A stretch of 64,000 nucleotides of DNA from assembly GCA_965222505.1 (NCBI GenBank), contig OZ244956.1:788581-852580 (forward strand), read 5' to 3'. Made by a program: the position numbers and the translations under genes. The DNA comes from Rhodothermales bacterium. Lineage in GTDB: Bacteria > Bacteroidota > Rhodothermia > Rhodothermales > DATKEJ01. Below, piece after piece: positions 1 to 29,200 of the stretch (the first letter of the stretch is position 1; every line of letters begins with the position of its first letter). Below the pieces are notes generated by a model that had not been told where the DNA came from, made no database searches, and worked only from the letters and a program-made list of their open reading frames with translations.

Positions 1-1686
1 GAGGGGGAGGCTTTTGCCTTCAGCCTCTATGAATTTAGCATAGGAAAAGCCCTCATCAACCACCAGGGTCTCAACGACTGCTCCATGCAGGAATATTTCT
101 TCGAGTTCAGAAAAGCTCAGTCCAAACAGAAGCCGGCCACGAAGGTGTTGGGAGAGTTCTTTGCCCTTCGGCCCCGATTGCCCCAACTGGAACACCTCCT
201 CCCGCCCGAACACTTCAGCAAATTGCAAGGCGGCCAGTGCATTGACCTCATCATTCGGTGTCAAGGCCAGCAGCCGGCCAATGCCGCCGAGGTTAATGTC
301 ATCTGCGATGCCTTCTTCGAGCACATTGCCCTGTTCCGCCGGAAGTCCGGCGGCTCGGGCCTTCTTAATATGGTTACGGTTAGTATCCAGGAGCAAGACA
401 TCCACCTTGTTCGCTTTAAGCACCTGCCCCATCTCGATCACCCAGTCGGTTGCCCCCACCAGCAATAAGCCCTGCGGTTTTGCCTGTGCAATCCCCATGC
501 GCCGTGCCAATGGCCCCAGGGAGAGCCCGTATATCATCACCGTACCCACAATGACGAAAAAGATCACAGGGGCCAGGGCCGCAGCCTCTTGTGGAAAAAG
601 CTCTTCCAACCGAAAACCAAACAGGGATGCCACAGCAGCCGCAACGATTCCGCGAGGAGCCAACCAGGACAAAAATAGTTTTTCCTTCCGCGTTACGTTG
701 GTTCCTCGGGCCGAGATCCATACGGCAATGGGCCGCACCACCAGCATCAAGGAAACCAAAAAGAGTACCGTCCGAAAGTTGATGTATCGAATATCGGCCA
801 GGTCCAGCCGGGCACTGAGCAGGATAAACAGGATGCCAATTAGAAGTACCCCAATGTCTTCCTTAAACTTGGTGAGCCGGTGTACATCAATAATGTTCTG
901 GTTGGCCATGCCAATGCCCATCAGGGTCGTAGCCAGAAGACCGGTTTCATGCTGAAGCATATCGGCTACGGCAAACACCAGGACCACAATCATAAGGGCC
1001 ATTGCATTTTGCAAATACTCTGGAATGAGCCGGTACCGCAGCATGAGGATGAGCATGGCCCCCCCGGCCACCGCCGTTCCTACTCCAATCACAATCACCC
1101 GCAGCAACCCCTCCAGTTCATAACCAATGGTGGTGCCCACACTCCCTGAGGGTTCACTGAGCAGAATAACCCCTTCCAGCACCAGCACCGCCAACACGGC
1201 CCCAATGGGGTCAATGGTAATGCCTTCCCACCGGGCAATAGTACTGACCCGTCCGCGGGGCCGAATGTCCCGCAACAAGGGGATAACCACTGTTGGCCCC
1301 GTGACCGTCAAAATGGCCCCAATGACGGTGGCTACCTCCCACCCGAAGCCAATGATGTAATGCGCGGCCAACGTGGCCAGTACCCACGTTACCAAAACCC
1401 CGAGGGTAATCAGGTTGATGACGATTTTGCCCACTTCCCGAAAATCGTCCATACGCAGACTCAAGCCTCCCTCAAACAGAATGATACCGACCGAGAGCGA
1501 CACAATCGGAAACAGCACCGGCCCCAGAATCTGGTCTGGGTCCAGTAACCCCATCAATGGACCGGCCAAAAAGCCGAAACCGAGCAGGAGCAGAATGGAG
1601 GGAATGTTGAAGCGCCAGGCCAACCACTGTGCGCTCACGCCCAGGATCAGGATGCTGGCAATGCCAAAGAGTAACGATTCAGACAA
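1..1686 (-). CDS. nhaP: NhaP-type (CPA1) Na+/H+ antiporter with a C-terminal cytoplasmic regulatory region; 3' end runs off the window; probable TTG start near 1686
   Basis: Manual minus-strand translation gives an uninterrupted frame: ...IASILILGVSAQWLAWRFNIPSILLLLGFGFLAGPLMGLLDPDQILGPVLFPIVSLSVGIILFEGGLSL...TLMGIGMANQ...LLLDTNRNHIKKARAAGLPAEQGNVLEE... This is typical CPA1/NhaP transmembrane topology followed by a TrkA-like tail. It is absent from the ORF track because no stop falls inside the window. Confidence 0.75.
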   Translation of the reverse strand, partial: MSESLLFGIASILILGVSAQWLAWRFNIPSILLLLGFGFLAGPLMGLLDPDQILGPVLFPIVSLSVGIILFEGGLSLRMDDFREVGKIVINLITLGVLVTWVLATLAAHYIIGFGWEVATVIGAILTVTGPTVVIPLLRDIRPRGRVSTIARWEGITIDPIGAVLAVLVLEGVILLSEPSGSVGTTIGYELEGLLRVIVIGVGTAVAGGAMLILMLRYRLIPEYLQNAMALMIVVLVFAVADMLQHETGLLATTLMGIGMANQNIIDVHRLTKFKEDIGVLLIGILFILLSARLDLADIRYINFRTVLFLVSLMLVVRPIAVWISARGTNVTRKEKLFLSWLAPRGIVAAAVASLFGFRLEELFPQEAAALAPVIFFVIVGTVMIYGLSLGPLARRMGIAQAKPQGLLLVGATDWVIEMGQVLKANKVDVLLLDTNRNHIKKARAAGLPAEQGNVLEEGIADDINLGGIGRLLALTPNDEVNALAALQFAEVFGREEVFQLGQSGPKGKELSQHLRGRLLFGLSFSELEEIFLHGAVVETLVVDEGFSYAKFIEAEGKSLPL

Positions 1687-2327
1687 TGGAGATTAGGGTT
1701 TAGAGCGTAGTGACATAAATATTGAAGGATGGGATCGCTCGAAATGGGATTGCCGTGTCAGGGCCGTTGGCCCTTCCTCGCAATGACCACGTGTTTTGAA
1801 TGTCATTGTACTTAGGATGTAATGCAGAAGGGAATTAACATACTACAACCTTCTGGTATAGACAACCCTTGAAGGGAACAAGGGCCACCTCATCTTAAAG
1901 CTGGAACACTTTTTCCAAGTAGCTATTGCCCCATCGCCAATCAAAACCCCACATTCACCCCGGCCAACCGGGTCCGCCCTGGGGCTGGCATCACGCATCT
2001 GTGTTGCCGGTAAAATCCCCCGGCCCCGCGAAAGAGGGGCTGTCCTTTTCGATGTTTGGGCGCGGGTCCACCCCTTCAACCCCTGATTCGCATTTTAAGG
2101 AAACGTCTGTCAGATGGAGCCGCCAACTTGTCAACGCGAGCGTATGCAAGGTACGTCATTCCTTCAGACCATCTGCGCCAGGTTTTCAGCGGATACGCCA
2201 TCTTTTCGGAGACCGTACGCAAGCCTGGCAGAGTGCACGCCTTGGCATACCCCTTGATACCTAAGGGGTCAAAACACAACCGAATTTTTTCACCCTACCC
2301 TATCACAAACCTATTATTAACAGAGCC

Positions 2328-2875: not shown

Positions 2876-3724
2876 CTAACGCCCATTTCTCAGGAAGAAT
2901 GCGCCTATGGTTTCGTTGGCATGCATGGGCCAGGTGTGGGTGCCCCCCTGGATGGCGTAGAGGTTAACCTCGGCAGCACAGTTGTTGAAAACCGAACGCT
3001 GAACGGAAAGATCGTCCTCCGGCTCGGCTACTTCGCGTGTGGGTGCGGCATCGCATCCATTCAGGTTGGCCCAGACGGCGACTGTTGAATCAATGGGCAG
3101 TCGTCCCCCCGCATTGGTACCAGCTCCGACCCAGGGAAAAGCCGGATCTTCCGTGCCGATCATTTGAATGAAAGCAACGGGTTGCTCCGGCGCGCACGTT
3201 TCGACCAACGCTGGCGTCATGGATGAGGCAACGGCTGCGATCCCCGCAAAGGTATTGGACAGGCTACATCCCATACGGTAGGCCATCCAGCCCCCCGCCG
3301 AAAACCCGAGCGCATACACCCGATTCGGGTCAATGTTAAAATCGGCGGAGACCTTGTTGACGGCTTTTCGCATAAAGTCTACATCATCGACACCCCGAAA
3401 ATCATCCTGGGTACAGGCACACCCCGGTGCCCAATCGTCCAGGCTGTTGGGATAGGCAATGAGTATGCCTTCCTGTTCTGCCAAATCATCCAACTTGGTT
3501 GACACCCGCATGCCGAGGCTGCTGCCTGGACTGCCATGAAAGGCCACCATCAACGGCGCAGGCGCAGCGGCCTGATAAGAGGCCGGGACGTACAACTCAA
3601 AGTTGCGTAACCTTCCATCAATGGAAAGCGTGATGTATAGCTCCTGCGGTTCCAGCTCAGGCGTAGCACTACATCCCAAACCCAATACCAAAAGTCCGGC
3701 AAGCATGTATCGGTGATACATCAT
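2876..3724 (-). CDS. Secreted esterase, PHB-depolymerase/feruloyl-esterase (alpha/beta hydrolase) family
   Basis: 282 aa; signal peptide plus a Cys close to the N-terminus (AGLLVLGLGCSATP); ...AFHGSPGSS..., ...LGFSAGGWMAY... (GxSxG nucleophile elbow), C-terminal His region. Confidence 0.65.
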   Translation of the reverse strand: MMYHRYMLAGLLVLGLGCSATPELEPQELYITLSIDGRLRNFELYVPASYQAAAPAPLMVAFHGSPGSSLGMRVSTKLDDLAEQEGILIAYPNSLDDWAPGCACTQDDFRGVDDVDFMRKAVNKVSADFNIDPNRVYALGFSAGGWMAYRMGCSLSNTFAGIAAVASSMTPALVETCAPEQPVAFIQMIGTEDPAFPWVGAGTNAGGRLPIDSTVAVWANLNGCDAAPTREVAEPEDDLSVQRSVFNNCAAEVNLYAIQGGTHTWPMHANETIGAFFLRNGR

Positions 3725-4089
3725 TCAAAAATACGTAAGGCATAGATCAACATAGACCTCCATAGTATCAACTCATTTCCTGAAATGAAAGGCATAGATC
3801 ATAGCCTTTTCATATTTCACCTCAGGCGCAAAGTCGACAGGTTTCGCGGGTTGCCACATTCCCATTCCGCTTGTATGAATCACATAGAACACTTGTCGGC
3901 TTTCCTGCCTGCACTTGTTATGTTTCTTTGAAGGATACCGCCACCAGATGTATGCGCTCCTCTACGTACTTGCTATACATCCTTGATTCACTTGTTCTTT
4001 CCCGAGCATTGGCCATTACTGCAATTCAGACTAATTATAAATTTAAGTCGATAAAAAACAAATGACTATCGAAACAGTTAAATAGACCA

Positions 4090-5574
4090 TTGAACTTCAC
4101 ACTTTTGCTTCCCGGTTCCTTTATGATGGCACCTGTTCCGGCCTACTGCCTGCCGCATTTTTCGGCCCTCCTTTTGTTCTTGCTGGCTTTAACACCCATT
4201 GCCTGTACGGACGCTCCAGCGCCTGATGCCGATGCCGCCAGCGAAACCCTTCCGCCATCAATTGCACCGTCTGCCTCTGCCGATGTGGTGTATGTTTCAT
4301 TAACCTCACAGCAAGCCGACGATCTGCGCATTGCAACCCGGACCGTGGAGACGCAACCCATTGCCTATCCAGTCGAGATTCCGGGTGAGGTGCACCCGGA
4401 CCCGGACCACTTTGCACGGGTCAGCGCGCCGATTGGGGGGCGCGTAACCCGGATTTATGCCCATGAAGGCGAGGCCGTCCGGCGCGGAGCGCCCCTGCTC
4501 ACGCTTGAAAGCCTGGAATATGCCAGTCTGGTGGCGGACTATCTACAGGCCCACGCGGAAACCCGTTTTCAACAACGCGATGTAGAACGGCTCCAGGTCC
4601 TCACCGAAAAGCGCATCGCACCCCAGAGTAAATTTGAACGCGCCCTCGCCGACCGGGATCGGGCGAAGGCCGCCGAGCAAGCCGCCCTGGCCCGCTTGCA
4701 AGCCCTTGGACTCCCGACCCAAACCATCGCTGCGTGGCAGTCTGATTCTACCGCCAACCAACGGCCTTTCCTGACGGTCTATGCCCCCATTTCCGGCAAA
4801 ATCGATGCCCACCTGATTGATCTCGGCCAGGCAGTATCCACCTACGAAGAACTTCTTACGCTGATAAACCCCGTCAAAGTCTTGATCAAAGGGTTTGCGG
4901 CACCGCAAGATGCGGGCCTGCTAAGCGTCGGTAGCCCGGTTACCGTCACCGGTGGCCCCGCCGGGGCCCAACTTGAAGCCCGAATCACCTCCATCAATCC
5001 GGCTATAGATGTTGAAAACCGGGCCGTTCCCCTGAATATCGAGACCACAACTGTGCAAAATTGGCCCGACCTCCAGCGGTTTAATCACACCCTGGATGCC
5101 GCCCAATTCGGCATTCGCGCGGCCCGCAGTTCCTTGATCCCCGGCTTGCAAGTAGAGGTCTTCCGTCAGGATTTTGGGACCGGCTATGACTTCTCCGGTT
5201 TTCAGGTTGGATTGAAGGTTCCGCTCTGGTGGCAAAACTACCGGGGCCGCCTCCGGTTGGCCCAGGCCGAATTTAACGCCGAACAGGCCCGGCGTGCTGC
5301 CGTACGGCTCACCGTCAACCAGGCGTTTGAAGAGGCCTGGCAACAGTACAAGACGAGCCACGCCAACATCGAACGGTATCAACAAATGGTGCAGGCCCAC
5401 TCGGACACCCTGCTCGCCCTTACACAGGAAGGCTATACCGCAGGCGAAGTGGATCTGATTACCCTGCTCGATACCCAGCGGACCTACCTTGCCAGCCGTC
5501 GGCGCTACGTCCGAACCTTACGGGATTACCTCAAGAGCCTGGCCACCCTGGAGCGTTTCAGACAAGTGCGTTGA
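4090..5574 (+). CDS. Chimeric efflux protein: N-terminal RND/HlyD-type periplasmic adaptor (MFP) fused to the C-terminal half of a TolC-like outer-membrane factor; possible deletion-fusion remnant (pseudogene)
   Basis: Lipoprotein-like N-terminus (LLALTPIAC). MFP lipoyl/beta-barrel segments (RVSAPIGGRVTRIYAHEGEAVRRGAPLLTLES; VYAPISGKIDAHLIDLGQAV). C-terminal 170 aa resemble the OMF second repeat (...VNQAFEEAWQQY...LLDTQRTYLASRRRYVRTLRDYLKSLATLE). Confidence 0.6.
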   Translation: MNFTLLLPGSFMMAPVPAYCLPHFSALLLFLLALTPIACTDAPAPDADAASETLPPSIAPSASADVVYVSLTSQQADDLRIATRTVETQPIAYPVEIPGEVHPDPDHFARVSAPIGGRVTRIYAHEGEAVRRGAPLLTLESLEYASLVADYLQAHAETRFQQRDVERLQVLTEKRIAPQSKFERALADRDRAKAAEQAALARLQALGLPTQTIAAWQSDSTANQRPFLTVYAPISGKIDAHLIDLGQAVSTYEELLTLINPVKVLIKGFAAPQDAGLLSVGSPVTVTGGPAGAQLEARITSINPAIDVENRAVPLNIETTTVQNWPDLQRFNHTLDAAQFGIRAARSSLIPGLQVEVFRQDFGTGYDFSGFQVGLKVPLWWQNYRGRLRLAQAEFNAEQARRAAVRLTVNQAFEEAWQQYKTSHANIERYQQMVQAHSDTLLALTQEGYTAGEVDLITLLDTQRTYLASRRRYVRTLRDYLKSLATLERFRQVR

Positions 5575-5586
5575 TCGAACCCCTTA

Positions 5587-5672
5587 GAGCCTATCCGAAG
5601 ACCTGCTTCGTAGGCCAGAGTACAACGGCACGATTAGTGCAGCCGTGCGAAGCCCGGATTGAGGTTCGGATA
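5587..5672. repeat. Long inverted repeat (16-bp perfect arms ttagagcctatccgaa / ttcggataggctctaa around a roughly 52-nt GC-rich spacer with an internal gcttcg...cgaagc repeat) between convergent genes
   Basis: Read directly from sequence. Candidate bidirectional terminator or REP-like element. Confidence 0.6.
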
Positions 5673-5676
5673 GGCT

Positions 5677-7797
5677 CTAAATGCCGAGCGTGCGTCCCCG
5701 TTTGAACCGACGGCGGATCTCGCCCAACACGGAAGGTTCACCGATGATGGTGACCCGATCATCCTGCTGAAGCATCGTATTGCCGCGCGGTACGATCATC
5801 TGATCTTCCCTTCGGATGATCGCGACGAGGCAATTTTCAGGCAGGGCAATGTCTTTCAGGGATTTGCCGATGAGTTCGGCCGTGGGGTCGTTGGGATTCA
5901 AGAAAAGCGTCAGGTAGCGGGCTCCACCCAGCAGCAACTCCTTGAGGTGTGCCGTATTCCCGGCCCGGAGCCAGCGTTCGAGGAAACGTTCTTCGTCCAT
6001 CCGATTGGCAAGCTGCGCCAACATCCTGAGGTGCTGCCTGTGATCGGCTTCAGGACTGACCAGCAAAAAGACCGCGTGGACGGACTCTTCGGTTTCTGGT
6101 GCCAGATCCGAAACAACATCCAGTCCTTCCCGTGATCGGATCAAGACCAGCCGGGGTTGCTTGATGCCACTGATATGAAAATGCGGCAGGGCTGCGCCGT
6201 GTGAGACCGGTGTGGTGCCTCTGCGGGTGCCCAGACGTTCCTTCACTTCTTCGGCAGTGATGGGAAGTTGCTCGGACACGGCATGGGCCGCACGATGCAA
6301 CACCTGTTCATAGGTCTCATTGGCCTCAGCCTCGATCACATGGGCCTTGGCAACCACTTCATCGAAAGGATCTTCTTGCCGTAAACCCTTTTCTTTCAGA
6401 ATGGTCCGAAACTCCCGGTCCAGACCTTCATATTGCGATTGCCCCAGCCGCTGGAACCAGTGGTAGATGGCCCCATCCCGGACCACATGCGCACGGGCAT
6501 AGCGGTAGTACCAGATCAGACAGAACAAGACCACGCCGATCGTAAACAGAATCGCCAGCCATCCCATATAGAATATCAGGACCAGAGAGATCAGAATACC
6601 GGCGATTTGCATCCACGGATACAAGGGCGAGCGATAGCCGGGGTCATAGGAGCCGATATGACTCTCCCGCATCACGATTACGGCCAGGTTGACCAGCATA
6701 AAGATGAACAACTGAAACGCACTGGCCAGTTTTGCAATGCCTTCTTCGTCCAGAATCAGGATAAACACGATCATCAGCGCCCCGGTGGCGAAGATCGACA
6801 GGGTCGGGGTGCGGAAACGCCCCAGGTTACTGAACGCTGCCGGCAGAAGCCGGTCCCGAGCCATAGCCAACGGATACCGTGATGCGGAAAGCACCCCGGC
6901 ATTGCCGGTGGATGCGAAGGCCGCCAGCGCAGCAACGACAATCAGCAGCAAACCCAGGGAATCGGGGAGCCAGTTGAAAAAGACCTGGGCTGCCGAAGCG
7001 ACCGGCGTAAGGTCTCCATGAAACGAGTCCGGATCAAGCACAGCCACCAGGATGAACACCCCGACGACGTAAATGATCGACGTGGAAACCAGAGAGAGGA
7101 TCATCCCGAGCGGGATGTTACGCTCCGGGTTTTCAACCTCCTCGGCCACGCTGGCTACTTTCGTCAACCCGGCATAGGAGACAAAGACAAAGCCGATGGT
7201 TGAAAGCAACCCTTCAAACCCCATTGGCATGAACGGGCTAAAACGAAAGCGGGTCAGGGCACGGGGTTGCTCGAAAACGATGGTGAACAGACCTTGCGCA
7301 ATGAAAAACGTCAGCACCGTAAGCAAGATGATGACCAGCCAGCGCTGCAAGCCACTCGTTTCCTTGGCCCCGACGACGTTGATGGCGACGAATGCCACCG
7401 TTAAGGCAATGGCCACCGGCTTGACGGGCAGTTCGATAAAAAACGAGGCATAGGCTCCGATGCCAATGAGGGCAAATGCTGTTTTGAGGGTAAGCGCCAG
7501 GTAGGTGCCAAGTCCGCCGATGGTCCCGAACATCGGGCCGAGACTCCGGTCGAGAAAATAGTACGTCCCTCCTGCCCGGGGCAGCGCCGTGCTCAATTCG
7601 GCCTTGCTAAACATGGCAGGCAGAATGAGAATCCCCGCAAACAGATAGGCCAACACCACGGCAGGCCCTGCTTTGGCTGCTGCCAGCCCCGGCAATAGAA
7701 AAAAGCCCGAACTGAACATCGCGCCAGTGCAAATGGCATAGACGTCGAAGAGATGTAATTCTTTCCTGAGGCGCTTGGCCTCCTTCAATTCAGGCAT
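5677..7797 (-). CDS. APC-family amino-acid permease fused to a PTS EIIA-2 (fructose/mannitol-type) domain and a TrkA_C/RCK_C domain
   Basis: 706 aa. 12-TM permease N-terminus. C-terminus has ...GAALPHFHISGIKQPRLVLIRS... (EIIA-2 phosphorylatable His region) and ...LKDIALPENCLVAIIRREDQMIVPRGNTMLQQDDRVTIIG... (RCK_C). Confidence 0.75.
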   Translation of the reverse strand: MPELKEAKRLRKELHLFDVYAICTGAMFSSGFFLLPGLAAAKAGPAVVLAYLFAGILILPAMFSKAELSTALPRAGGTYYFLDRSLGPMFGTIGGLGTYLALTLKTAFALIGIGAYASFFIELPVKPVAIALTVAFVAINVVGAKETSGLQRWLVIILLTVLTFFIAQGLFTIVFEQPRALTRFRFSPFMPMGFEGLLSTIGFVFVSYAGLTKVASVAEEVENPERNIPLGMILSLVSTSIIYVVGVFILVAVLDPDSFHGDLTPVASAAQVFFNWLPDSLGLLLIVVAALAAFASTGNAGVLSASRYPLAMARDRLLPAAFSNLGRFRTPTLSIFATGALMIVFILILDEEGIAKLASAFQLFIFMLVNLAVIVMRESHIGSYDPGYRSPLYPWMQIAGILISLVLIFYMGWLAILFTIGVVLFCLIWYYRYARAHVVRDGAIYHWFQRLGQSQYEGLDREFRTILKEKGLRQEDPFDEVVAKAHVIEAEANETYEQVLHRAAHAVSEQLPITAEEVKERLGTRRGTTPVSHGAALPHFHISGIKQPRLVLIRSREGLDVVSDLAPETEESVHAVFLLVSPEADHRQHLRMLAQLANRMDEERFLERWLRAGNTAHLKELLLGGARYLTLFLNPNDPTAELIGKSLKDIALPENCLVAIIRREDQMIVPRGNTMLQQDDRVTIIGEPSVLGEIRRRFKRGRTLGI

Positions 7798-7856
7798 GGC
7801 AACGAATGGGTCTGGAAAGCAGGATAACTTAAAACGAAAGCGCTGGTATGCCCCTG

Positions 7857-9583: not shown

Positions 9584-11101
9584 TTAAGGTATCTGAGAGG
9601 CTTGCCCATTTGCCGGCAACCATACATTGAGGTAGTCGAATGCCGTCACCCCTCCCGACAGGTTAAAATCGCCTTGGTGATAACCTGGAGAACTGCCGTT
9701 TTGTTGAAGCCAAACGCTGAGAAAATCAAATGCCGTAATCGCGCCATCGCTGGTGCCGTCACCGCCCCACAGCACAAAATCCCCGTCTATATTCCTCATG
9801 GGCTGTGTGCCATAGGCTTGACCTAAGCTAACCGTAAAATCGTATGCGGCAGTCGTACTTTCAGTCAGAGGCACCGGTGCAACCGTCATTACACCCGCAT
9901 GATTGCGATGTTCGACCACGATGTAGTACTCCCCTGCAGGTACGGCTTCAAATACAAGCGAACTACTTCCATCAAGATCTCGAATGAACCCGTTTGAAAG
10001 AAGAAACCCGGCCCGACCGGCTACCGTTGACGCGGCATTCGGTGCACTTCGCAGATGAACCAATACCCAGTCGACAACATTCTCCGGGACGGCTTGAACT
10101 GTTTCAGTGCCTTCATAATTCCAGGGTGCTCCGGCAAAGGGATGGGAAAGCGGAATATGCATTCCACTTTGCAAATCGGTATGCATGGTGCCAGCGTCAA
10201 ATGGCCCTGCAAGAAAGACCTTAATATCCGTCGGTAAGTTCACGTCGGCCGCCAACAGAAATTCTCCCATCCCTGCAACTCCCGTCAAGACGAGTTCATT
10301 TTCCGAAACATCATAACTGGTAGCTACAGGAATAAATGTACCAAACCCCGGCTCGGACCGTCTATAGGCCACCACACCTGACGGATCGGTAAAGCCCGGA
10401 TTGGATAGTTCATCCAGCGCAATTCGAATTTCAGTAGCAGGATCGAATGTGAGACCCTCTCGTATATGCACCTCCCATCGGTGCTCAAATACAGTATTAT
10501 GGGTAACGCCGGTCGTAGCACTGGGCGGCTGGTCGTAGTAACTAACGGAAACCATAGTGGTATCAACAAATTGAACCGTATTGACACCCACAAAGTCAAT
10601 GGTATAAGCCGTACTTTGAAAATCAAATGTGCCATCTCCTCCCACAATGACCGTAGCTACACCGGCTGGTAGGACTCCGGTTACACAAAAAGCCAGCCAT
10701 TGATTCGGAGGAAAATTGGTCTCATCAAATGTGGTGCCGGGATTGATCCAACTCTGCCCACTCCACCAAATTCCATCCCCATTGGAAACCGTGTATTGTT
10801 TTACATAGTGCGCAGTAAAAAACTTCCAGCGGTACGGAAGTGGTGTGGCTCGAAACTCCAACCCGATAAAATTCTCCAATACATCACCGGCATTCTGTTG
10901 AAGCGATGATGACTGATAGGGAGACGATCCCAACCATCCAATGCTTTCAGTAGAACGACAGGCTCCTTCGGTAGGAATGGTTTGCGCCCAAACAGGAATA
11001 GTGAGACAGCAGGATACAACCAAACCAATGCTAAACAGAATACCAGCGTTGTAACTCATTGGTACATGCGGTTTGATGAGGGAAAGAATATGGCGAAACA
11101 A
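9584..11101 (-). CDS. Secreted hypothetical protein with a C-terminal pair of dockerin-like (Ca-binding-loop-like) repeats
   Basis: 505 aa. Signal peptide (probable start around 11059, MSYNAGILFSIGLVVSCCLTIPVWAQT). C-terminal repeats DGDFVLWGGDGTSDGAITAFDFLSVWL / QGDFNLSGGVTAFDYLNVWL. Confidence 0.4.
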   Translation of the reverse strand: MFRHILSLIKPHVPMSYNAGILFSIGLVVSCCLTIPVWAQTIPTEGACRSTESIGWLGSSPYQSSSLQQNAGDVLENFIGLEFRATPLPYRWKFFTAHYVKQYTVSNGDGIWWSGQSWINPGTTFDETNFPPNQWLAFCVTGVLPAGVATVIVGGDGTFDFQSTAYTIDFVGVNTVQFVDTTMVSVSYYDQPPSATTGVTHNTVFEHRWEVHIREGLTFDPATEIRIALDELSNPGFTDPSGVVAYRRSEPGFGTFIPVATSYDVSENELVLTGVAGMGEFLLAADVNLPTDIKVFLAGPFDAGTMHTDLQSGMHIPLSHPFAGAPWNYEGTETVQAVPENVVDWVLVHLRSAPNAASTVAGRAGFLLSNGFIRDLDGSSSLVFEAVPAGEYYIVVEHRNHAGVMTVAPVPLTESTTAAYDFTVSLGQAYGTQPMRNIDGDFVLWGGDGTSDGAITAFDFLSVWLQQNGSSPGYHQGDFNLSGGVTAFDYLNVWLPANGQASQIP

Positions 11102-11105
11102 CTGA

Positions 11106-12599
11106 TCATGAACGAATTTGAACTGTTCTGATCAGTTGTCGCGTCACCTCGCGGATAAGTTCACGTCTATGCCTGAGGAGTCGTTTTTCACCAGCGGCAC
11201 TTTGCTGACCTTCAAGCAGCAAATTGGGAACAACAACCGCTGGACTTACGACGTATGTATATTCCCAGGGGATGCTGGATACGGAAGGAGGGCTATTCAT
11301 CATACGGCGTAAGCGTACCCTATTTCTTTCATGCGCCTTTTCAAGGTCCGCGATAGTGTCGGTCAGTTCGTTTCTGTATTGAACAAGCTCGATTTCTTTT
11401 TTGAACTTCTTTTCTTGCGATGCTCGCGTATAGGCCAGCGTCAAGGTATTTCTGCTGGCTTTTGATTCATTAATCAACGTCCGAAGTTCAGCATTGTATT
11501 TTTGAATTACACCGTTGATGACTGCGGCATTCTTCACTTTCCTTTGCACATCAAAAGTGATACGTATCGGCTCTGCAGCCCATGATTCCAATTCATGAGA
11601 CCCAAGCCAAACTATACTGCCGGATACAACACTAATAAGTTTGGCATTAAACTCGACACGTAGCCATTTGGAAGGCACCCGTGCCGGTAAGGCATCGGGT
11701 AACGAACCAAATTTTAACCCAGGATTTGCTTGTAGAAATGACTTGACTTCAGGCAACTCCTGGATATTGAGCATACGATTTTCTGCATCGTTTACGGCTA
11801 AACCATTGATCTGAAGCACATAGTCGGCTTGGTCACTTCCCGTCTGTGCTGCCCGAATCACTTCTGCGATGTCGATCATTTCATCTTCCGTACGCTTGTG
11901 TCCGGGTAACCCGATTTGGCTGATTTCGTCAACTTCGCTGATTCTTTTTATGTAGTCTTTTTGCGTCAATACGCCACTTTTCAGTTGTTCTGCCAATAGT
12001 GATTTGAGGGCATCATATTCCTTGTTTTCAATCAGTCGTTCGTAGTTAGTCCACCAGTATCGGGTATCATTTGCCCGGTCGCGCAAATCCCGAAGCTTGG
12101 CTTCAAATTTTGAACGATCCAATACATTAAAACCCTGCCGCAAGAGGGCAGCTTCAATGGCCTGTTCAGCCTCATTGTAATAGCCGTCGGTCCTGAAGAC
12201 CTCATGAAGGCCCCGTCCTACCGCTTCACTTTCCTGTCGTCCCTCGGTACTGCTCAACGATTGCGATGTGGCCTTATCAGGAACAGCGATGATTACCGAA
12301 GGAGCAGTATCCGGCTTGTTACGGCTTGCCCCTGGATTGTTATAATAGGCATCCGTATTTGGCGCAACGGTTTGTGCTAATGAAATCACGAGCCGGCTCC
12401 GTTCCTCCTCGGGAACGGGCCGTTCGGCAATATATTTCACTTCCAATACGGCCGATACGTCAGGGGGTGTAGTATACAAAGGCTTGAATACCTTTGGCCC
12501 ACAGCCGGCACCAATAATAGCAAAAAGAATCACAAATAATTGCAGCCTAATCATATCATGGCTTCTCTTTAGTTCCGAGACTCGTGTGTTAAAGCACAT
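11106..12599 (-). CDS. Hypothetical lipoprotein with an extended coiled-coil region; co-operonic with the 9584-11101 gene (4-nt gap)
   Basis: Probable start MIRLQLFVILFAIIGAGCG (lipobox AGC); K/E/R-rich coiled-coil-like stretches. Confidence 0.4.
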   Translation of the reverse strand: MCFNTRVSELKRSHDMIRLQLFVILFAIIGAGCGPKVFKPLYTTPPDVSAVLEVKYIAERPVPEEERSRLVISLAQTVAPNTDAYYNNPGASRNKPDTAPSVIIAVPDKATSQSLSSTEGRQESEAVGRGLHEVFRTDGYYNEAEQAIEAALLRQGFNVLDRSKFEAKLRDLRDRANDTRYWWTNYERLIENKEYDALKSLLAEQLKSGVLTQKDYIKRISEVDEISQIGLPGHKRTEDEMIDIAEVIRAAQTGSDQADYVLQINGLAVNDAENRMLNIQELPEVKSFLQANPGLKFGSLPDALPARVPSKWLRVEFNAKLISVVSGSIVWLGSHELESWAAEPIRITFDVQRKVKNAAVINGVIQKYNAELRTLINESKASRNTLTLAYTRASQEKKFKKEIELVQYRNELTDTIADLEKAHERNRVRLRRMMNSPPSVSSIPWEYTYVVSPAVVVPNLLLEGQQSAAGEKRLLRHRRELIREVTRQLIRTVQIRS

Positions 12600-12689
12600 G
12601 GTTTTCTATATCTATTAAATACGATGTTTTTTCTCCCCTGTAGACACCCGTGGTTCCTTTTTTTCGACATACCACCGGCTCAACCTTGA

Positions 12690-13307
12690 GTGCCAACCAT
12701 ATTTAGGCTATTTTGGGAGCACGCACCTACTCTAGATCCTTGTCTCACAACCCGTATGGCTTCTATTACCGGACTTCTTGTACAGTGGAAGGATGGCGAT
12801 ACCGAAGCTGGTAACCAACTGTTCAACCTCATCTACCAAGACCTCCACCTCCTCGCACAGCGGCAACGAAAGGGGTGGGAGCACCTCGAAACATTTAATA
12901 CAACGGCACTCGTACACGAGCTCTTTCTGAAATGGGACAAAGCAGCCCATATAACGGCAGAAGACCGACGGCAGCTTTATTTTTTCGCTGCACACGCCCT
13001 TCGCAATATTTTAGTTGATTACGCCCGTTCCAAAAAACGAAAGAAGCGAGGAGGCAGCCGACGCAACACTACACTACACGATATACATGATAACTCGGTA
13101 GCATTAGAAATAGAGGACATCCTGGCCCTTAATTCCGCTATCGATACGCTACGAACCCAAAGTACAAGATTGGCAGATGTTGTAGAATTGCATTTCTTCG
13201 GTGGGTTTTCATATACCGAAATTGCGGACACTTTAGGAGTAACCAAACGTACCGTCGCCCGCGATTGGCTAAAGGCCAAAACCCTACTTTATCGTACATT
13301 ACGGTAA
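12690..13307 (+). CDS. ECF-type RNA polymerase sigma factor of the kinase-associated (Sig70_X6/ECF43-like) type
   Basis: Region-2-like ...ALVHELFLKW... and region-4 HTH ...DVVELHFFGGFSYTEIADTLGVTKRTVARDW... The true start is probably the internal Met near 12756. A Ser/Thr kinase gene lies immediately downstream. Confidence 0.75.
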   Translation: MPTIFRLFWEHAPTLDPCLTTRMASITGLLVQWKDGDTEAGNQLFNLIYQDLHLLAQRQRKGWEHLETFNTTALVHELFLKWDKAAHITAEDRRQLYFFAAHALRNILVDYARSKKRKKRGGSRRNTTLHDIHDNSVALEIEDILALNSAIDTLRTQSTRLADVVELHFFGGFSYTEIADTLGVTKRTVARDWLKAKTLLYRTLR

Positions 13308-13341
13308 CGGTTTCCCTATCCGACACCAAACCTGTACCCTC

Positions 13342-16056
13342 ATGCATGCACCCAAATGGTCACGCATCGAAGCAATACTAGACCATGCCCTCACCTTGTC
13401 TGGCCCCAAAAGAACAGCGTACATCGACAAAGCCTGTGCACACGATCCAACACTCAAGGATGAAGTTTACCGTCTGCTGGAAGATATGGCTAAAGCAGAG
13501 GCAAGTTCTTTCCTCAAGCAACCAGCCGGTTATGAACTTCAGAATTTAGCACGTCAGGCTTTCGCTTCGGACGCAGACGAATGGATCGGACAAACCCTGG
13601 GGGGATATCGGGTGCTAGAACATATTGGAAGCGGGGGTATGGGATCCGTTTACCTTGCCAAACGAGTCGATGAATCATTTCATCAGCAAGTAGCCATCAA
13701 ACTCATAAAACGGGGCATGAATACCGATAGAGTGATCCGGCGCTTTGTCCGTGAGCGACAAATCCTTGCCCAGCTACGTCATCCCCATATTGCACGCCTG
13801 ATTGATGGCGGCGTAACCGAAGATGGCCTCCCCTATTTTGTGATGGACCATATCGAAGGGCTACCCCTCATATCCTATTGTGATACATATACTTTGACAG
13901 TTGGTGAGCGCATTGATTTGTTTCAGCAAATTTGCGAGGCTGTACGATATGCCCATCAAAATCTGATCGTACACCGTGACCTAAAACCTAGCAATATCCT
14001 CGTTACACCAGCCGGACAAGTCAAGTTATTGGACTTCGGTATTGCCAAAATGCTGGACTATGGTCAACCCGATCAAACCCGTACGGACACTCAAATCCTC
14101 ACCCCTGCCTATGCAGCCCCTGAGCAAATTAAGCGTGAACCGATTACCACAGCTACCGATGTATATGCTTTAGGTATTTTGCTCTATGAGTTGCTCACCG
14201 GCCATCGACCATACCGAGTCGCAAACAAAACGTATGAAGACTTGATCCATGCCATTTGCAATACCATACCGATACGACCCAGTATGGCGATATCACAAGT
14301 ATCGGAGAATAAAGACGGTAGTCGCATATCCCCTGATTCACTTAGTGCAAAACGTCGAACGACTCCGGCGCAACTCAAACGCCGGCTACGCGGAGACCTC
14401 GATACCATCACTCTAATGGCGCTTCGCAAGGAACCCTCTCGTCGGTATCCTTCAGCAGACGCAATGTTGGTCGATCTCAATTCACATGTGGCAGGAATGC
14501 CGATTACAGCCCAAAAAGACACTTTTGGATATCGAGCCGGTAAATTCGTCCGAAGGCACAAGTGGGGCGTCACTGTGACCCTTGTTGGTGTGCTTGCGGG
14601 GTTGGGATTTACATGGCAGTTGGTTCAGGAGCGTAACCGCGCCGAAACCAAGGCCGCTGAAGCGGAGGCCGTATCCAACTACCTCGTATCGCTTTTTGCA
14701 GCACCCGATCCCTTTTCCTATCGAAGTGGCGATTATGAGGATGTAGATGCCGACACCCTCCGCGTTGCTGATTTCCTGAGACTGAGCGCCAAGCGCGTGG
14801 AGTTAGACTTGAATGACCAGCCTGCCGTCAAAGCATTACTGTTAAGCACGATGGGCACGGCTTTTCAAAACTTATCCGATCTGGAGACGGCTGAGCACTT
14901 AATCTCTACCAGCATTGGATTACGCAGTGAGCTGGGCAAAACAGAACAGGAGAACGTGGTAAAATCATTAGCAACCCTCGCAGATATTAATCTTGATCAA
15001 GGGCAATATCAGACAGCTGATTCTTTGTATAAACACGCATTAGAACTTAGCCAAACACTAGATGACACTCCCAATGTACAAACAGCAGTAATTTACAATG
15101 GAATGGGGATCGTCGAACTCAGGAAGGGCAATTATGTAGAGACAGAGGCTTTGTTCAGAGAAGCACTCTCCATTAGACTTGAGCGCCTTCCCCCTGAACA
15201 CAATGACATCTTTCAATCATACAATAACCTAGGGGCTGTGCAAATGAGACAGGGGAAATATGACGAAGCTGAGCAAAATTATAACCGTTGTCTTGAATTC
15301 GATAAGGTACACCTGGGCTTAGATCACCCTGGTACAGCCATTACCCTTGGAAATTTAGCAACGGTTGCATACCAAAAAGGCGATTATGATAAATCTGAAC
15401 GCCTGAACCGTGAAGCATTAGCCATTCGGCGGCAACGACTGGCTCCAGAAAATTCATACATCTCCCAGAACCTTAACAATCTAGCGACAACTTTAAGGGC
15501 AAAAGGCAATTATGACGAAGCGCTAGCCCTTTTTAAGGAAGCCCGCAGCCTTTTCCATTTGATCCAAGGCAGTGAGAGTTCTGGTGTAGCGATCTCTCTG
15601 CTGAATATTGGCACCACCTTAGGTTTACAGGACAAGAATGAAGAAGCCCTGGAGATGCTCTATGACGCACTGGAAATGTGGAAGCGTCTGTTCGGCCCAG
15701 CGCATCCTCGAATTGCGCAAACGATGATGCAAATTGGCATTGTCCTCATGGAAGAAGGCCAACTAGATGAGGCTGAGGCCTTTCACCGGCAAGCACTCGC
15801 AATGAGACAAGAACTCATTGGTACCGATCATCCAGACATTGCCGCTTCAAAAAGCAATTTAGGTGTTGTACTTACGGCCCAAGGTGCACTTGAAGAAGCT
15901 GAACCATACCATTTGCAAGCGGTTGACCTAGCTATAAAATCACTCGGTCAAACCCACCCCTACACCCAGACATACGTACGTAACACTGTTGCCCTCTATG
16001 AGACTTGGAACCGGCCGGAACAGGCCGCAACCTATCGAGAACGGCTGACGGAGTAG
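13342..16056 (+). CDS. Ser/Thr protein kinase with a C-terminal TPR-repeat domain
   Basis: 904 aa; GxGxxG ...LEHIGSGGMGSVYLA..., VAIK, HRDLKPSNILV, DFGIAK, APE motifs; one TM segment; multiple TPR repeats (...YNNLGAVQMRQGKYDEAE...). Confidence 0.9.
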   Translation: MHAPKWSRIEAILDHALTLSGPKRTAYIDKACAHDPTLKDEVYRLLEDMAKAEASSFLKQPAGYELQNLARQAFASDADEWIGQTLGGYRVLEHIGSGGMGSVYLAKRVDESFHQQVAIKLIKRGMNTDRVIRRFVRERQILAQLRHPHIARLIDGGVTEDGLPYFVMDHIEGLPLISYCDTYTLTVGERIDLFQQICEAVRYAHQNLIVHRDLKPSNILVTPAGQVKLLDFGIAKMLDYGQPDQTRTDTQILTPAYAAPEQIKREPITTATDVYALGILLYELLTGHRPYRVANKTYEDLIHAICNTIPIRPSMAISQVSENKDGSRISPDSLSAKRRTTPAQLKRRLRGDLDTITLMALRKEPSRRYPSADAMLVDLNSHVAGMPITAQKDTFGYRAGKFVRRHKWGVTVTLVGVLAGLGFTWQLVQERNRAETKAAEAEAVSNYLVSLFAAPDPFSYRSGDYEDVDADTLRVADFLRLSAKRVELDLNDQPAVKALLLSTMGTAFQNLSDLETAEHLISTSIGLRSELGKTEQENVVKSLATLADINLDQGQYQTADSLYKHALELSQTLDDTPNVQTAVIYNGMGIVELRKGNYVETEALFREALSIRLERLPPEHNDIFQSYNNLGAVQMRQGKYDEAEQNYNRCLEFDKVHLGLDHPGTAITLGNLATVAYQKGDYDKSERLNREALAIRRQRLAPENSYISQNLNNLATTLRAKGNYDEALALFKEARSLFHLIQGSESSGVAISLLNIGTTLGLQDKNEEALEMLYDALEMWKRLFGPAHPRIAQTMMQIGIVLMEEGQLDEAEAFHRQALAMRQELIGTDHPDIAASKSNLGVVLTAQGALEEAEPYHLQAVDLAIKSLGQTHPYTQTYVRNTVALYETWNRPEQAATYRERLTE

Positions 16057-24599: not shown

Positions 24600-24714
24600 T
24601 TTAATGTGGGTTATGCAAGTAATAAATCGTATGCTCGTATAGTATTTCGTAGTGCGTAAGGGAAGTTGCCCTGATGTGAGAGGGCACCCTTACGCAATAC
24701 GCATTACGCACTAC
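24600..24714 (-). repeat. Structured intercistronic repeat element, copy B (actC stop to actD start)
   Basis: + strand: ...cgtagtgcgtaagggaagttgccctgatgtgagagggcacccttacgcaatacgcattacgcactacg... Around 80% identical to copy A over the core. Confidence 0.6.
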
Positions 24715-26168
24715 GTTTCTGTTTCTGTTTCCGGTGAAGCCAATTCGGCATCGGCACTGTGGCCGTCTCCGTGCTCGTCATAAAAATGCGGGTTGGCTTC
24801 GGGCATCACACCCTTGACCTCGGCGATGGCAACCATCGGCACAAACCGCAGGAAGAGCAGGAACAGGGTCAAAAACAGGCCGAAACTCCCGACGAGCGTC
24901 AGCACGTCCACAATCGTGGGCGAAAAGTAGTCCCAACTCGACGGCAGGTAATCGCGGTGAAGCGATGTTACCGTAATCACGAACCGTTCGAACCACATCC
25001 CGATGTTGACCAAGATCGAGATCACAAACATAAGCGGGATGTTGCGCCGGAACTTCTTGAACCAGAAAAGCTGCGGGGCAAACACGTTGCAGCTAAACAT
25101 CGTCCAGTAGGCCCAGGCATACGGCCCGGTGGCGCGGTTAATGAAGGCATATTGTTCGTAGGTCACGCCGGAGTACCACGCGATGAAAAATTCCGTGATA
25201 TAGGCAAATCCGACGATTGACCCCGTCAGGAGCATGATGATGTTCATCTTCTCCAAATGGTTCAACGTAATCAGGTCCTCAATTTCGTACACCTTCCGGG
25301 CCGTGATCATAAGCGTTTGCACCATGGCAAACCCGGAGAAGATGGCCCCGGCCACAAAGTAGGGTGGGAAAATCGTCGTGTGCCATCCCGGGACGATAGA
25401 CACGGCAAAGTCGAACGACACGACCGAGTGTACAGAAAGCACCAGCGGTGTAGCCAAACCGGCCAGGATGAGATAGGCACGTTCGTAATGCCGCCAGTGC
25501 CGATTGGCACCCGTCCAGCCCAATGCAAGGGCACCCATCACTTTCTGCCGAATTTTGCCTTTGGCGCGGTCACGCAGCGTGGCCCAGTCCGGGATCAAGC
25601 CAACATACCAGAACAGCACCGATACGGTACCGTAGATCGTGACTGCAAACACATCCCACAACAGCGGACTCTTGAACTGCGGCCACATCAGCATCTGGTT
25701 CGGAATGGGCAGCGTCCAGTAGATCACCCAGATCCGTCCGACGTGAATGGTCGGGAACAAGAGCGCACAAACAACGGCAAAGATCGTCATGGCTTCGGCA
25801 GCCCGGTTAATCCCCGTGCGCCACTTCTGCCGGAACAGAAAGAGCACCGCCGAAATCAGCGTGCCCGCGTGGCCGATCCCGACCCAGAACACGAAGTTGA
25901 CGATGGCCCATCCCCAACCGACCGGGTTGTTCAGGCCCCAAACGCCGGTGCCGTTCCAAAACAACCAGGCGATCATGACAATCAGCGTCAGCAACCCGAC
26001 AACGGCCACCCCAAACAACGGGTACCAGAGCTTCGGCGGTTTCTTCTCAGCGTGTTTCGCCACCAGTTCGGTTACATCGTGGAAGGTATGCCCCCCTTCC
26101 ACCAGGGGTGGATCGGAAGCATGTCCGTCGCCGGAGATGCCGAGGTGTTGATCGTGTGTCGTACTCAT
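24711..26168 (-). CDS. actC: Alternative Complex III subunit ActC (NrfD/PsrC-like quinol-interacting membrane subunit)
   Basis: 485 aa polytopic membrane protein; NrfD-family topology. Confidence 0.85.
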
Positions 26169-26205
26169 TCGAAATTCTGAGTTTACGATTTACGTTGAAA
26201 ACGTA

Positions 26206-29200
26206 TTAAGAGACGTTTTCGAGGCTTGGGTTGGGATTGCGGAGCCGGGCCAGGTACGAGACCCGTGGTTTGACGGACAGTTCTTCGAGCAACTCATAGT
26301 TGCGCTCGTTCTGTTTCATCCGTACCACCTGGCTATTGGCATCGGTAAGGTCACCGAAGGTAATAGACTGCGAGGGGCATGCCTGCTGACATGCCGTCAG
26401 CACTTCGCCCTCGGCAATGCCCCGGCCCTCACGGCGGGCATCCTGGCCGGTCTTGCGAATGCGATGGATACAGAAGGAACACTTCTCCATCACCCCGCGG
26501 AACCGGACCGTCACGTTCGGATTCTGGACCATATGCACGGTGTCCGGCAGCGTCTTGGTCCAGTTGTAGAAATTGAACCGGCGCACTTTGTACGGGCAGT
26601 TGTTGGCGCAGTAGCGCGTCCCGATACACCGGTTGTAGGCCATCACGTTGATGCCGTCCGGGGAGTGCACCGTCGCGGCCACCGGGCAAACCGACTCGCA
26701 CGGGGCATTTTCGCAGTGCATACACATCACCGGCATGGTAACCATACCCGGTACATGCGTATCGTCCCCGGTATAGTACCGGTCCAGGCGAATCCAGCTC
26801 ATGTCCCGGCCCCGGCTGATCTGGTCTTTTCCGACGACCTGTATGTTGTTTTCGCTCTGGCAAGCTGCGACACAGGCATTACAGCCGGTACAGGTATTCA
26901 GATCGATGACCATCCCCCACTGCTGATCGGCGTACCGTGCGTCTGCATATCTTGGGTCTTTGGTCGGATGATCGTCCTCCCAAAGGGCGGGATATTCATC
27001 CCAGGGTTCAAGTTGCTGCCCTTCGCTTTCCAGCCGTTTAATTACATCACCGGCAAAGGTGGGCGTGGCCTTATATTCTTCAAGCGTTGCCATCCGGAAG
27101 ATGGGGCGGCCTTCCATGGAGCCGTGGTCCTGCGTGGTTGCCACCATGTACCCACCACCCGCTCTGCTCACCTGGGCACCGGATACAAAGGATGCCCCAG
27201 CCGAGCGCAGCGGCGCTACATTTTGGCCCACACCGTTTGCCAATGGACCCGCACTGTAGATATCGGCATCGATATCGTAAATCGGCACATCCGGGGGGAC
27301 CCGTGTGCTGTTGATGGCGCGGCCATAGCCGAGGTTCAGCGTCACGACGTCATCGGCATGGCCGGGGGCCACCCAGACGGGCAACTCAACCGACTGTCCG
27401 TTGGCGGAAATGGTAACGGTGTCTACGTAGTGTTTACCTGCATCGATTTCGTAACCGACGCCGAGGGCACTGGCCGTTGCCGGACTCATCATGGCGGCGT
27501 TGTCCCATGTGATCTTCGTCACGGCATCCGGGGTTTCCTGCATCCAGGCATTGTTCGAGAAACGCCCATCGTAGAGTTTGCCATCAGCGCGGAAGGACAA
27601 TTCAATGCCATCGGCTGTGGTGGGCAGGGCAGCCACAGCGGCACCAATCGAAGCGGCGCCGGGGCTGGCGGCTGCAAAGGCCGAATCGGCCAGGAAACCG
27701 TCATGGACCACTTTCCGCCAGGCGGCCTCATAATCGCCCGTCAGGACGCCGCGCCATCCGTTGCGGATAAGTTCAAAGCTGGAATCGGTGCCCCCAGCCA
27801 GGGCATTGACCACATCCAACGCAGAATGGGCATCCGGGTAAAGCGGGGCAACCAAGGGTTGTACCACAGAGCGGGTACCATCAAAGGCACGGCCGTCGCT
27901 CCAGGCTTCCAGATAATGGGCCTGCGGCAGGTGCCAGGCCGAAGCCTGTGCGGTTTCGTCTACCCAGAGGCCCAGGTGAATCGTGTTGGGCACCTGCCCG
28001 AGGGCCTGGGCAAAATTCAATCCGGCCGGCGCGTTATAGACCGGGTTCACGCCGATCATCAACAGGGTATCCACTTGCCCGGCACTCATGGACTGGGCCA
28101 GTGCAGCCAGGGCTTCGTCTTGCGGTTGCCGCTGGGCTTCACCGGTATTCAGCAACTGAACGGTTGTGCCAATGTTGCCAAGGGTCTGGTTGATGGCGGC
28201 ACACAAGGCATGCACAGCCGCAGGCTGGCCCGAACCGGACAACACAATCCCCTGCCCTTGATGGGCTCGCAGGTCATCCGCCAAGGCGGCAATCCAGGGG
28301 TGATCGGCGAAGGCGCTGCCAGCAGAAGCCGCTTCCGAGAGGCCGAGGCGGGCAGCCAGGGCCGCAGCAAATGCACCGATCTGGCTCGGCTTGAGCCGCA
28401 GGCGATGGTCGGCCATGCCGCCCGTGCCACTGAAGGCACTTTCAACCACGTAAAGCCGACTCATGGTGTCGCTGGTGGACATCACGCGGCGGCCATCGGC
28501 GTAGGTGCGAGCGTCGTGGGTATTATTGGGGTTGAGCGGCCCCAGAAAATCGGCATCCAGGCTCAGAATGACCTGGGCCTGATCAAATTGGTGAACGGTG
28601 CGGTAGGGCTGACCAAAGGCCATTTGTGTGCCTAGTGCAGCGTTATCGTCCCCGGTAGCTTCCCAGGTTACCCAGTTCAAATTCGGGTAGCGGGTGGCAA
28701 GCTGGGTGCGGAGTGCAGCCATCGTCGGCGAACTGCTGGCTTCGGCCAAAACGGCCACCTGGCCGCTCGGCTGATGGGTCCGGGCAAAGTCCGTAAAGTC
28801 ATCCCATGAAGCCGCCGTGTTACCGTGCAGTACGCGCTTGGAACGGTCTGGGTCGTACAGGTTCAGGATGGAAGCCTGCTGGAAGATGTTGGATGCGCCC
28901 TGGCTAACGGGGTGTTCGGTATTGCCTTCGACCTTCGTTGGTCGCCCTTCATGGCTTTCGACGAGCATCGGGTGCAGGACCCCGGCCATCGGCATGGCGG
29001 TGGCATAAAACAACGGCAACCCAGGAATCACTTCCTCGGGTTTGCGGCTGTAGGGTAGAATTTGTTCCACCGGACGGCGGCAAGCGGTCAGGCCGGCCAT
29101 CGCCATAGAGGCCCCCATCAGCTTGATAAAATCACGCCGGGAAGATGCCGTAGGGGCTTCAAGGGCATCCGGCGCAAATTCTTGCGCCTGTTGGGCCCGG

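Follow-up and report, generated by a model that had tools for sequence, protein, structure and literature searches.

An MFP::OMF chimera in a Rhodothermales genome, a probable young in-frame deletion remnant of a CzcB/RND/CzcC-type efflux operon

Tripartite efflux systems combine a resistance-nodulation-division (RND) pump with a periplasmic adaptor, or membrane fusion protein (MFP), and an outer-membrane factor (OMF). OMF protomers are internal duplications with pseudo-symmetry, and the adaptors act as hexamers (PMC8277102; PMC4446572). The adaptor domains are assembled from both the N- and the C-terminal segments of a hairpin-like chain, and tandem fusion of two adaptors (MFP-MFP) is a known architecture (PMC4446572). 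Neither a described MFP-OMF fusion nor a comparable czc deletion chimera was found in the literature. Here we describe an open reading frame (ORF) that joins the greater part of a CzcB/ZneB-like adaptor to the C-terminal half of a CzcC/TolC-type OMF. It lies in a 64,000-nucleotide stretch of a Rhodothermales bacterium genome (GenBank assembly GCA_965222505.1, contig OZ244956.1, positions 788,581 to 852,580), the whole of which was analysed and is called the window below. We consider this chimera, with a probability of about 0.75, to be the young remnant of an in-frame deletion within an operon of the CzcB/RND/CzcC type.

The single ORF reported in an earlier, sequence-only reading is present at 4090..5574 on the plus strand and encodes 494 amino acids (aa) if started at TTG 4090. 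P0001, the copy found in the database, matches it at 100% identity, has 483 aa and begins at ATG 4123, which is probably the translation start. Residue numbers below refer to the 483-aa protein unless stated otherwise; adding 11 gives the numbering of the 494-aa ORF. P0001 is known from one 5,335,778-bp contig only, is the single member of its 90% cluster and is named in no source. The gene consists of the following parts:

4123..5574, plus strand: chimeric MFP::OMF ORF, 483 aa and stop codon (identity with P0001; Pfam HlyD_D23 and OEP)
4123..4206, plus strand: signal peptide with a lipoprotein-type Cys28 (codon 4204-4206), from the homologue alignment and a modelled hydrophobic helix at 10-27
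4123..5067, plus strand: CzcB/ZneB-like adaptor, residues 1-315, with N-terminal strand, lipoyl domain, alpha-hairpin and most of the beta-barrel
5065..5067, plus strand: junction codon CCC (Pro315), common to both parental alignments, which break between WP and xPGQ in adaptors and between xP and (E/D)L in OMFs
5068..5571, plus strand: one CzcC/TolC-type OEP repeat (C-terminal), with short helix, beta-hairpin region and long helical hairpin

The N-terminal part is an adaptor in all but its end. HlyD_D23 matches positions 94-318 of the 494-aa ORF with 89.9 bits (cut-off 30), and the NCBIfam models RND_mfp and CzcB/NccB match over the same part of the protein. TIGR01730 is covered from position 4 to 226 of 322 at 76.1 bits, below its cut-off of 94.9, and no NCBIfam model reaches its curated cut-off on the chimera. 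An AlphaFold2 model of the monomer, whose input alignment covered the adaptor part only, is confident at residues 80-310, comprising the lipoyl domain, the alpha-hairpin (131-194) and barrel strands. The best solved match of this half is ZneB (3LNN), both by sequence and by fold. The family score, the model and the fold match together identify the adaptor core of lipoyl domain, alpha-hairpin and beta-barrel. Adaptors carry either a signal peptide with a lipoprotein cysteine or a membrane anchor; here the lipoprotein-like signal proposed from the sequence is borne out by Cys28, a putative lipidation site that is invariant in all 13 aligned adaptor homologues.

What the adaptor has lost is its last barrel strand and its C-terminal membrane-proximal part, together about 90 aa. 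All adaptor alignments stop at residues 315-317, and the closest homologues, 40-53% identical, cover only the N-terminal 52-74% of the query. The CzcB_C domain (PF25975) is not on record for P0001, whereas 28 of the 30 closest adaptor matches carry this annotation; the other two are 321-330 aa long, and the one inspected is cut by a frameshift. Since adaptor domains draw on both ends of the chain, a protein without its last 90 or so residues has neither a complete membrane-proximal domain nor a complete barrel.

The C-terminal part belongs to a different family and is likewise partial. OEP matches positions 320-489 of the 494-aa ORF with 84.9 bits (cut-off 22). The NCBIfam models for TolC (TIGR01844, positions 204-388 of 414; 47.5 bits against a cut-off of 225.15) and NodT (TIGR01845, positions 267-453 of 460; 34.6 bits against a cut-off of 210.05) are covered only in the second repeat, in agreement with the C-terminal TolC/OprM-type repeat that had been recognised by eye. 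The intact OMFs of two relatives (loci L005 and L001) contain two OEP stretches, and the single one in the chimera corresponds to the second. The half maps to about positions 235-410 of OMFs of about 415 aa, and it has neither the first repeat nor the OMF's own signal peptide. Complete OMFs assemble as trimers with a 12-stranded barrel and a long helical tunnel. In the AlphaFold2 model of the chimera monomer, helices at 368-440 and 445-482 form the long helical hairpin expected of a TolC-type repeat at a predicted local distance difference test score (pLDDT) of 70-84, and the strand region at 320-368 falls below 50. Pfam thus finds HlyD_D23 and OEP in one chain, and no single family covers its full length.

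The junction between the two halves is abrupt. The family switch lies at residue 326/327 of the 494-aa ORF, that is 315/316 of the 483-aa protein and nucleotides 5065-5070. The switch itself had been correctly noticed in the letters, but it had been placed some ten residues too early, at about residue 315 and nucleotides 5030-5060. The sharpest case is that of L005 in tblastn, where residues 51-322 of the L005 MFP match window positions 4249-5067 and residues 245-412 of the L005 OMF match 5065-5565, so that the two alignments overlap by exactly one codon. In pairwise and tblastn comparison with four relatives, the adaptor alignment always ends at 315 (...T.xxWP) and the OMF alignment begins at 315-335. 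Intact adaptors read WP-x-PGQ-V-R... here, which is the last beta-barrel strand, and continue for some 90 residues more; where their second repeat opens, intact OMFs have ...(Q/H)-P-(E/Q)-L... instead. The chimera reads NWP-DLQRFNHTLDAAQ, with zero inserted residues. The cut lies on the boundary of the second OEP repeat in the OMF and inside a domain in the adaptor. A repeat search found no repeats at the junction or common to both breakpoints that could serve recombination or assembly collapse. Judged by its letters, the junction fits illegitimate recombination at, or beside, the common Pro codon.

The nearest relatives of both halves are found in intact operons. In L002, an ENA metagenome contig, and in L005, from a Rhodothermales metagenome-assembled genome, the order is MFP-RND-OMF. 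A third locus, L003, runs MFP-RND as far as the contig end with no OMF upstream, which is consistent with the same order. The MFP and OMF halves of the chimera are, respectively, 51% and 55% identical to L002, 46% and 45% to L005, and 44% and 38% to L001. Because both halves match the same operons at similar identity, they belong to one operon lineage. Comparison with related genomes yielded the intact MFP-RND-OMF operon that the sequence-only reading had called for, although not at this locus, where the only close relative (L087, described below) has no such segment. The L002 contig, labelled with 1.61x coverage, has its MFP and OMF genes split by frameshifts (110-1320 and 4552-5878). These are probably assembly errors, a caution that fragmented genes in such contigs need not be biological.

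No pump accompanies the chimera. A tblastn search of the 64-kb window with three RND pumps and with full-length adaptors and OMFs as queries returned no RND pump, second MFP or second OMF at E<1, as the absence of an adjacent pump and a separate OMF gene had already indicated. Adaptors are encoded beside an RND transporter; this one has an esterase-like gene and a permease as neighbours.

The architecture is a singleton in current data. An exhaustive phmmer comparison with 1.84 billion representative proteins yielded 8,878 matches, and among the best 150 only P0001 spans both halves. In those 150, adaptor matches stop at 305-327, and OMF matches begin at 279-331 and fall in the C-terminal half of targets of about 415 aa. 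The best 150 reach down to about 90 bits, and very distant fusions scoring lower would fall outside them; a true fusion homologue would add the scores of both halves and would therefore rank near the top. No second MFP::OMF fusion was found among these matches, in 5.8 billion clusters (where the chimera forms its own cluster, n=1) or in the JGI metagenomes, and the JGI scan, which included the junction peptide VQNWPDLQ, found no relative. A search of the 5.8 billion clusters with the OMF half alone gave no match but also missed P0001 itself, and is hence uninformative. The alternative that the ORF represents a conserved, bona fide fusion family thus finds no support.

Matches of about 700 aa with two matching stretches were considered as natural MFP-OMF fusions and rejected, since 10 of the 10 checked are MFP-MFP tandems. 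Such tandems of two complete CzcB-type adaptors, 670-750 aa long (for example P0128, P0132, P0149 and P0160), are fairly common among the adaptor relatives.

Two families in one chain, the gene order in L002 and L005, a junction of one codon and singleton status support the in-frame deletion of an MFP-RND-OMF operon that the sequence-only reading had put forward. We propose that a single illegitimate in-frame deletion of about 4.2 kb took place inside a heavy-metal-type RND operon of that order. With L005 as a model, the deletion would have started just past the conserved Trp-Pro near the end of the beta-barrel, at about MFP codon 322 of 413, and ended at the Pro that opens the second OMF repeat, at about OMF codon 245 of 419. 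It would have taken out the adaptor's final barrel strand and membrane-proximal C-terminus, the whole pump and the first OMF repeat, and would have retained the promoter-side end of the operon, the lipoprotein signal and the original stop. If expressed, the product would presumably be an exported lipoprotein in which an incomplete adaptor is fused, linkerless, to half a channel protomer. With no pump, an incomplete pump-docking domain and two of four barrel strands per chain, the chimera cannot act as an efflux system, and the remnant is probably non-functional.

The surroundings of the gene include the following features:

2876..3724, minus strand: alpha/beta-hydrolase (esterase-like) gene, divergent, upstream of the chimera
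3725..4122: AT-rich spacer (43-45% GC) between the esterase-like gene and the chimera, presumed promoter region, holding AAGGCATAGATCA at 3737 and 3789
5584..5599 and 5665..5680: arms of a perfect inverted repeat, TTAGAGCCTATCCGAA, 16 nt each and separated by a 65-nt spacer, between the convergent chimera and permease
5677..7797, minus strand: convergent permease (AA_permease, PTS_EIIA_2 and TrkA_C), not part of the efflux remnant and inside the segment absent from L087
3725..7856: segment of about 4.1 kb absent from L087 by blastn and tblastx, comprising AT-rich spacer, chimera, inverted-repeat hairpin and permease

The upstream esterase and convergent downstream permease had both been recognised in the sequence. 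The only close relative found for this neighbourhood is L087, a 2.5-kb Logan contig (SRR30410474) in which a PNP-like gene, an MTHFR gene and an esterase-like gene are contiguous. Its MTHFR is 91% identical to that of the window in protein and 80.6% in DNA. By blastn, L087 positions 1-357 correspond to window positions 9280-8923, 503-1556 to 8917-7859 and 1705-2466 to 3652-2891, and tblastx carries the esterase match on to the start codon. As MTHFR directly adjoins the esterase-like gene in L087, the two lineages differ by an indel of about 4.1 kb, window positions 3725-7856. Downstream of MTHFR, three more distant Rhodothermales loci (L088-L090) each carry different genes and so do not fix the direction of the indel. 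When the intergenic DNA of L087 and the window was aligned in search of target duplications or exact indel ends, no meaningful similarity emerged, and neither mobile-element genes nor flanking repeats are present.

Permease homologues were found at 80 loci in 185,579 species genomes, a collection that does not contain the source genome, the best at 72% identity, and at none of these 80 loci does an MFP, OMF, esterase or MTHFR homologue stand beside the permease. Full-length homologues, 48-72% identical, occur in Rhodothermales, Balneolales, Gemmatimonadota, Planctomycetota, Chloroflexota and others, and their gene neighbourhoods always differ; the three-part architecture of AA_permease, PTS_EIIA_2 and TrkA_C is itself unusual. 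The locus is accessory and rearrangement-prone, which suits a decaying operon but leaves the place of the deletion unshown.

Within the spacer, the 13-mer AAGGCATAGATCA occurs in exactly two copies (3737-3749 and 3789-3801), 52 nt apart, against a chance expectation of 0.03 matches, and the pair may be a regulator binding site. A promoter scan of the spacer found no sigma-70 consensus. The TTAGAGCCTATCCGAA inverted repeat fills the 102-bp gap between chimera and permease, its right arm overlapping the permease stop codon. It is the sole copy in the window, folds at -48.2 kcal/mol (z = -4.7) and has no T-run; terminator and Rfam scans gave no matches. From its fold and position it may be a bidirectional terminator-like structure or a small palindromic element.

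Several observations weigh against a decaying remnant. The ORF is fully open, as would also be expected of a gene under purifying selection. Of 49 columns with at least 85% conservation in its family, the adaptor half keeps 48, and the OMF half keeps 34 of 40, at the bottom of the 34-40 seen in intact members. The breakpoint on the OMF side coincides exactly with a repeat (domain) boundary, which could also be seen in an evolved fusion. In Fodinibius saliphilus (L001) the order is OMF-MFP-RND, from which a simple deletion could not yield the chimera. No genome was found with an intact ancestral operon at this locus, and we infer the deletion from relatives that are 45-55% identical. In Tajima-type counts against clear outgroups, the adaptor half has not accumulated extra lineage-specific changes (27 versus 28 with L001); the OMF half has a no more than suggestive 1.6-2.5-fold excess (approximate values) over its sister, since several of the outgroups are no farther from the sister than the chimera. 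When simulated with substitutions only, the ORF stayed open with a probability of 0.39 at 2%, 0.09 at 5% and 0.01 at 10% neutral divergence, so that the deletion must be far more recent than the divergence from L087 unless selection holds the frame. A young deletion is the more likely of the two, because the structural arguments and the singleton status point that way.

The alternative that selection does hold the frame would make the chimera a functional new fusion, either a self-assembling hexamer or a decoy or accessory protein that binds components of other pumps. Besides the conservation and repeat boundary just described, which leave a complete structural repeat in place, it could draw on the intact 483-codon ORF with its own upstream spacer and downstream hairpin, and on host-like codon usage. 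Given the duplicated OMF and the hexameric adaptors (PMC8277102; PMC4446572), an assembly of six adaptors and six half-channels is even conceivable. We nevertheless regard a functional fusion as unlikely. A selected fusion would have to be reconciled with its occurrence once in 1.84 billion representatives, 5.8 billion clusters and the JGI metagenomes, with an adaptor cut within its beta-barrel domain and deprived of its membrane-proximal part, with the lack of a pump gene nearby and the absence of the gene from its sole close relative, and with the suggestive excess of changes in the OMF half. The junction has no linker, although in assembled pumps, as judged from published structures (PMC4446572; PMC8277102), it would be the hairpin tip of the adaptor that meets the OMF, a long way from the truncation point. 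A particular form of this idea, a minimal adaptor-channel in which a lipoprotein hexamer would join six single TolC-type repeats into a 12-stranded outer-membrane duct, is in our view very unlikely. If true, it would recreate, in one gene and tethered to an adaptor, the presumed half-size OMF ancestor that preceded the duplication.

The contig itself could mislead, if an intact operon were real and about 4.2 kb had been dropped, or a minority deletion variant chosen, in the consensus. P0001 comes from one contig only, and the frameshifted MFP and OMF genes of L002 are an example of damage in long-read metagenome assembly. Typical long-read errors are small indels rather than clean 4-kb deletions. 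Here the junction is clean, in frame and limited to a single common codon, no repeat common to both breakpoints would have led an assembler to collapse the sequence, and the flanks are ordinary unique sequence of host-like composition, all of which makes an artefact improbable. A different history for a real gene appears more doubtful still: an MFP and an OMF from different operons, such as tandem operons of the order OMF-MFP-RND, would have recombined, or an already deleted fragment would have been transferred horizontally together with the permease. The order OMF-MFP-RND does exist in L001, the chimera lies within the 4.1-kb segment absent from L087, and its neighbourhood is not matched at the 80 permease-homologue loci or the three more distant MTHFR loci. 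But a deletion between tandem operons should leave an OMF upstream and MFP-RND downstream, neither of which is present, and the closest relatives of both halves carry plain MFP-RND-OMF. Codon usage and GC content at third codon positions (GC3) are host-like for both halves and for the permease, and, as noted above, the segment carries no sign of mobile elements. Transfer would in any case be compatible with a deletion origin and would only shift the place where the deletion occurred.

Elsewhere in the window, a long open frame at 1-1692 (minus strand) leaves the left edge, for which reason the ORF list lacks it, and resembles a cation/proton antiporter with a C-terminal regulatory domain; the plus-strand ORFs at 85-955 that overlap it are probably spurious. 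Three consecutive genes at 9584-16056 have a GC content of 0.47-0.50 and a GC3 of 0.45, against a GC3 of 0.60-0.75 around them, and may be a horizontally acquired block; they encode a 505-aa ORF without a Pfam match, a 497-aa ORF and a 904-aa Ser/Thr kinase with TPR repeats. At 24711-29364 (minus strand), a 1052-aa protein containing 4Fe-4S dicluster domains and, after it, an NrfD-type membrane subunit suggest a respiratory module resembling alternative complex III or polysulfide reductase rather than an RND pump.

If the chimera is a young deletion remnant, as we favour, it is a clean and datable case of operon decay through one in-frame illegitimate deletion, and an instance of ordinary genome decay. 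It also carries a warning for annotation, because pipelines may label such a protein 'efflux RND transporter periplasmic adaptor subunit' or 'TolC family protein' where there is no efflux system. Were it functional instead, it would be informative about the assembly of half-size OMF repeats and about the 6:3 stoichiometry of adaptor to channel; singleton status, truncation, the linkerless junction and the missing pump speak against this.

Among described proteins, the natural fused dimeric adaptors of periplasmic adaptor protein (PAP) type, such as the PAP-PAP protein DSY0927, resemble the chimera in joining two modules of tripartite pumps in one polypeptide. They differ in that they consist of two complete adaptors and are recurrent and conserved, whereas the chimera unites a truncated adaptor with half of another component and is unique. 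The tripartite heavy-metal efflux (HME) RND systems CzcCBA, CusCBA and ZneCAB, with adaptors such as ZneB and CusB, provide the counterpart of each half: the N-terminal 315 residues are a CzcB/ZneB-like adaptor, and the C-terminal 168 residues are an OEP repeat of the CzcC/TolC type. Unlike these systems, the chimera has two components in one polypeptide, each incomplete, and no RND pump gene. The uncharacterised MFP-RND-OMF operons of uncultured Rhodothermales and related bacteria (L002 and L005, and in part L003) are the nearest relatives of both halves and have the order needed for a single deletion; compared with the intact three-gene operons of L002 and L005, the frameshifts of L002 aside, the window keeps only the outer ends of the operon.

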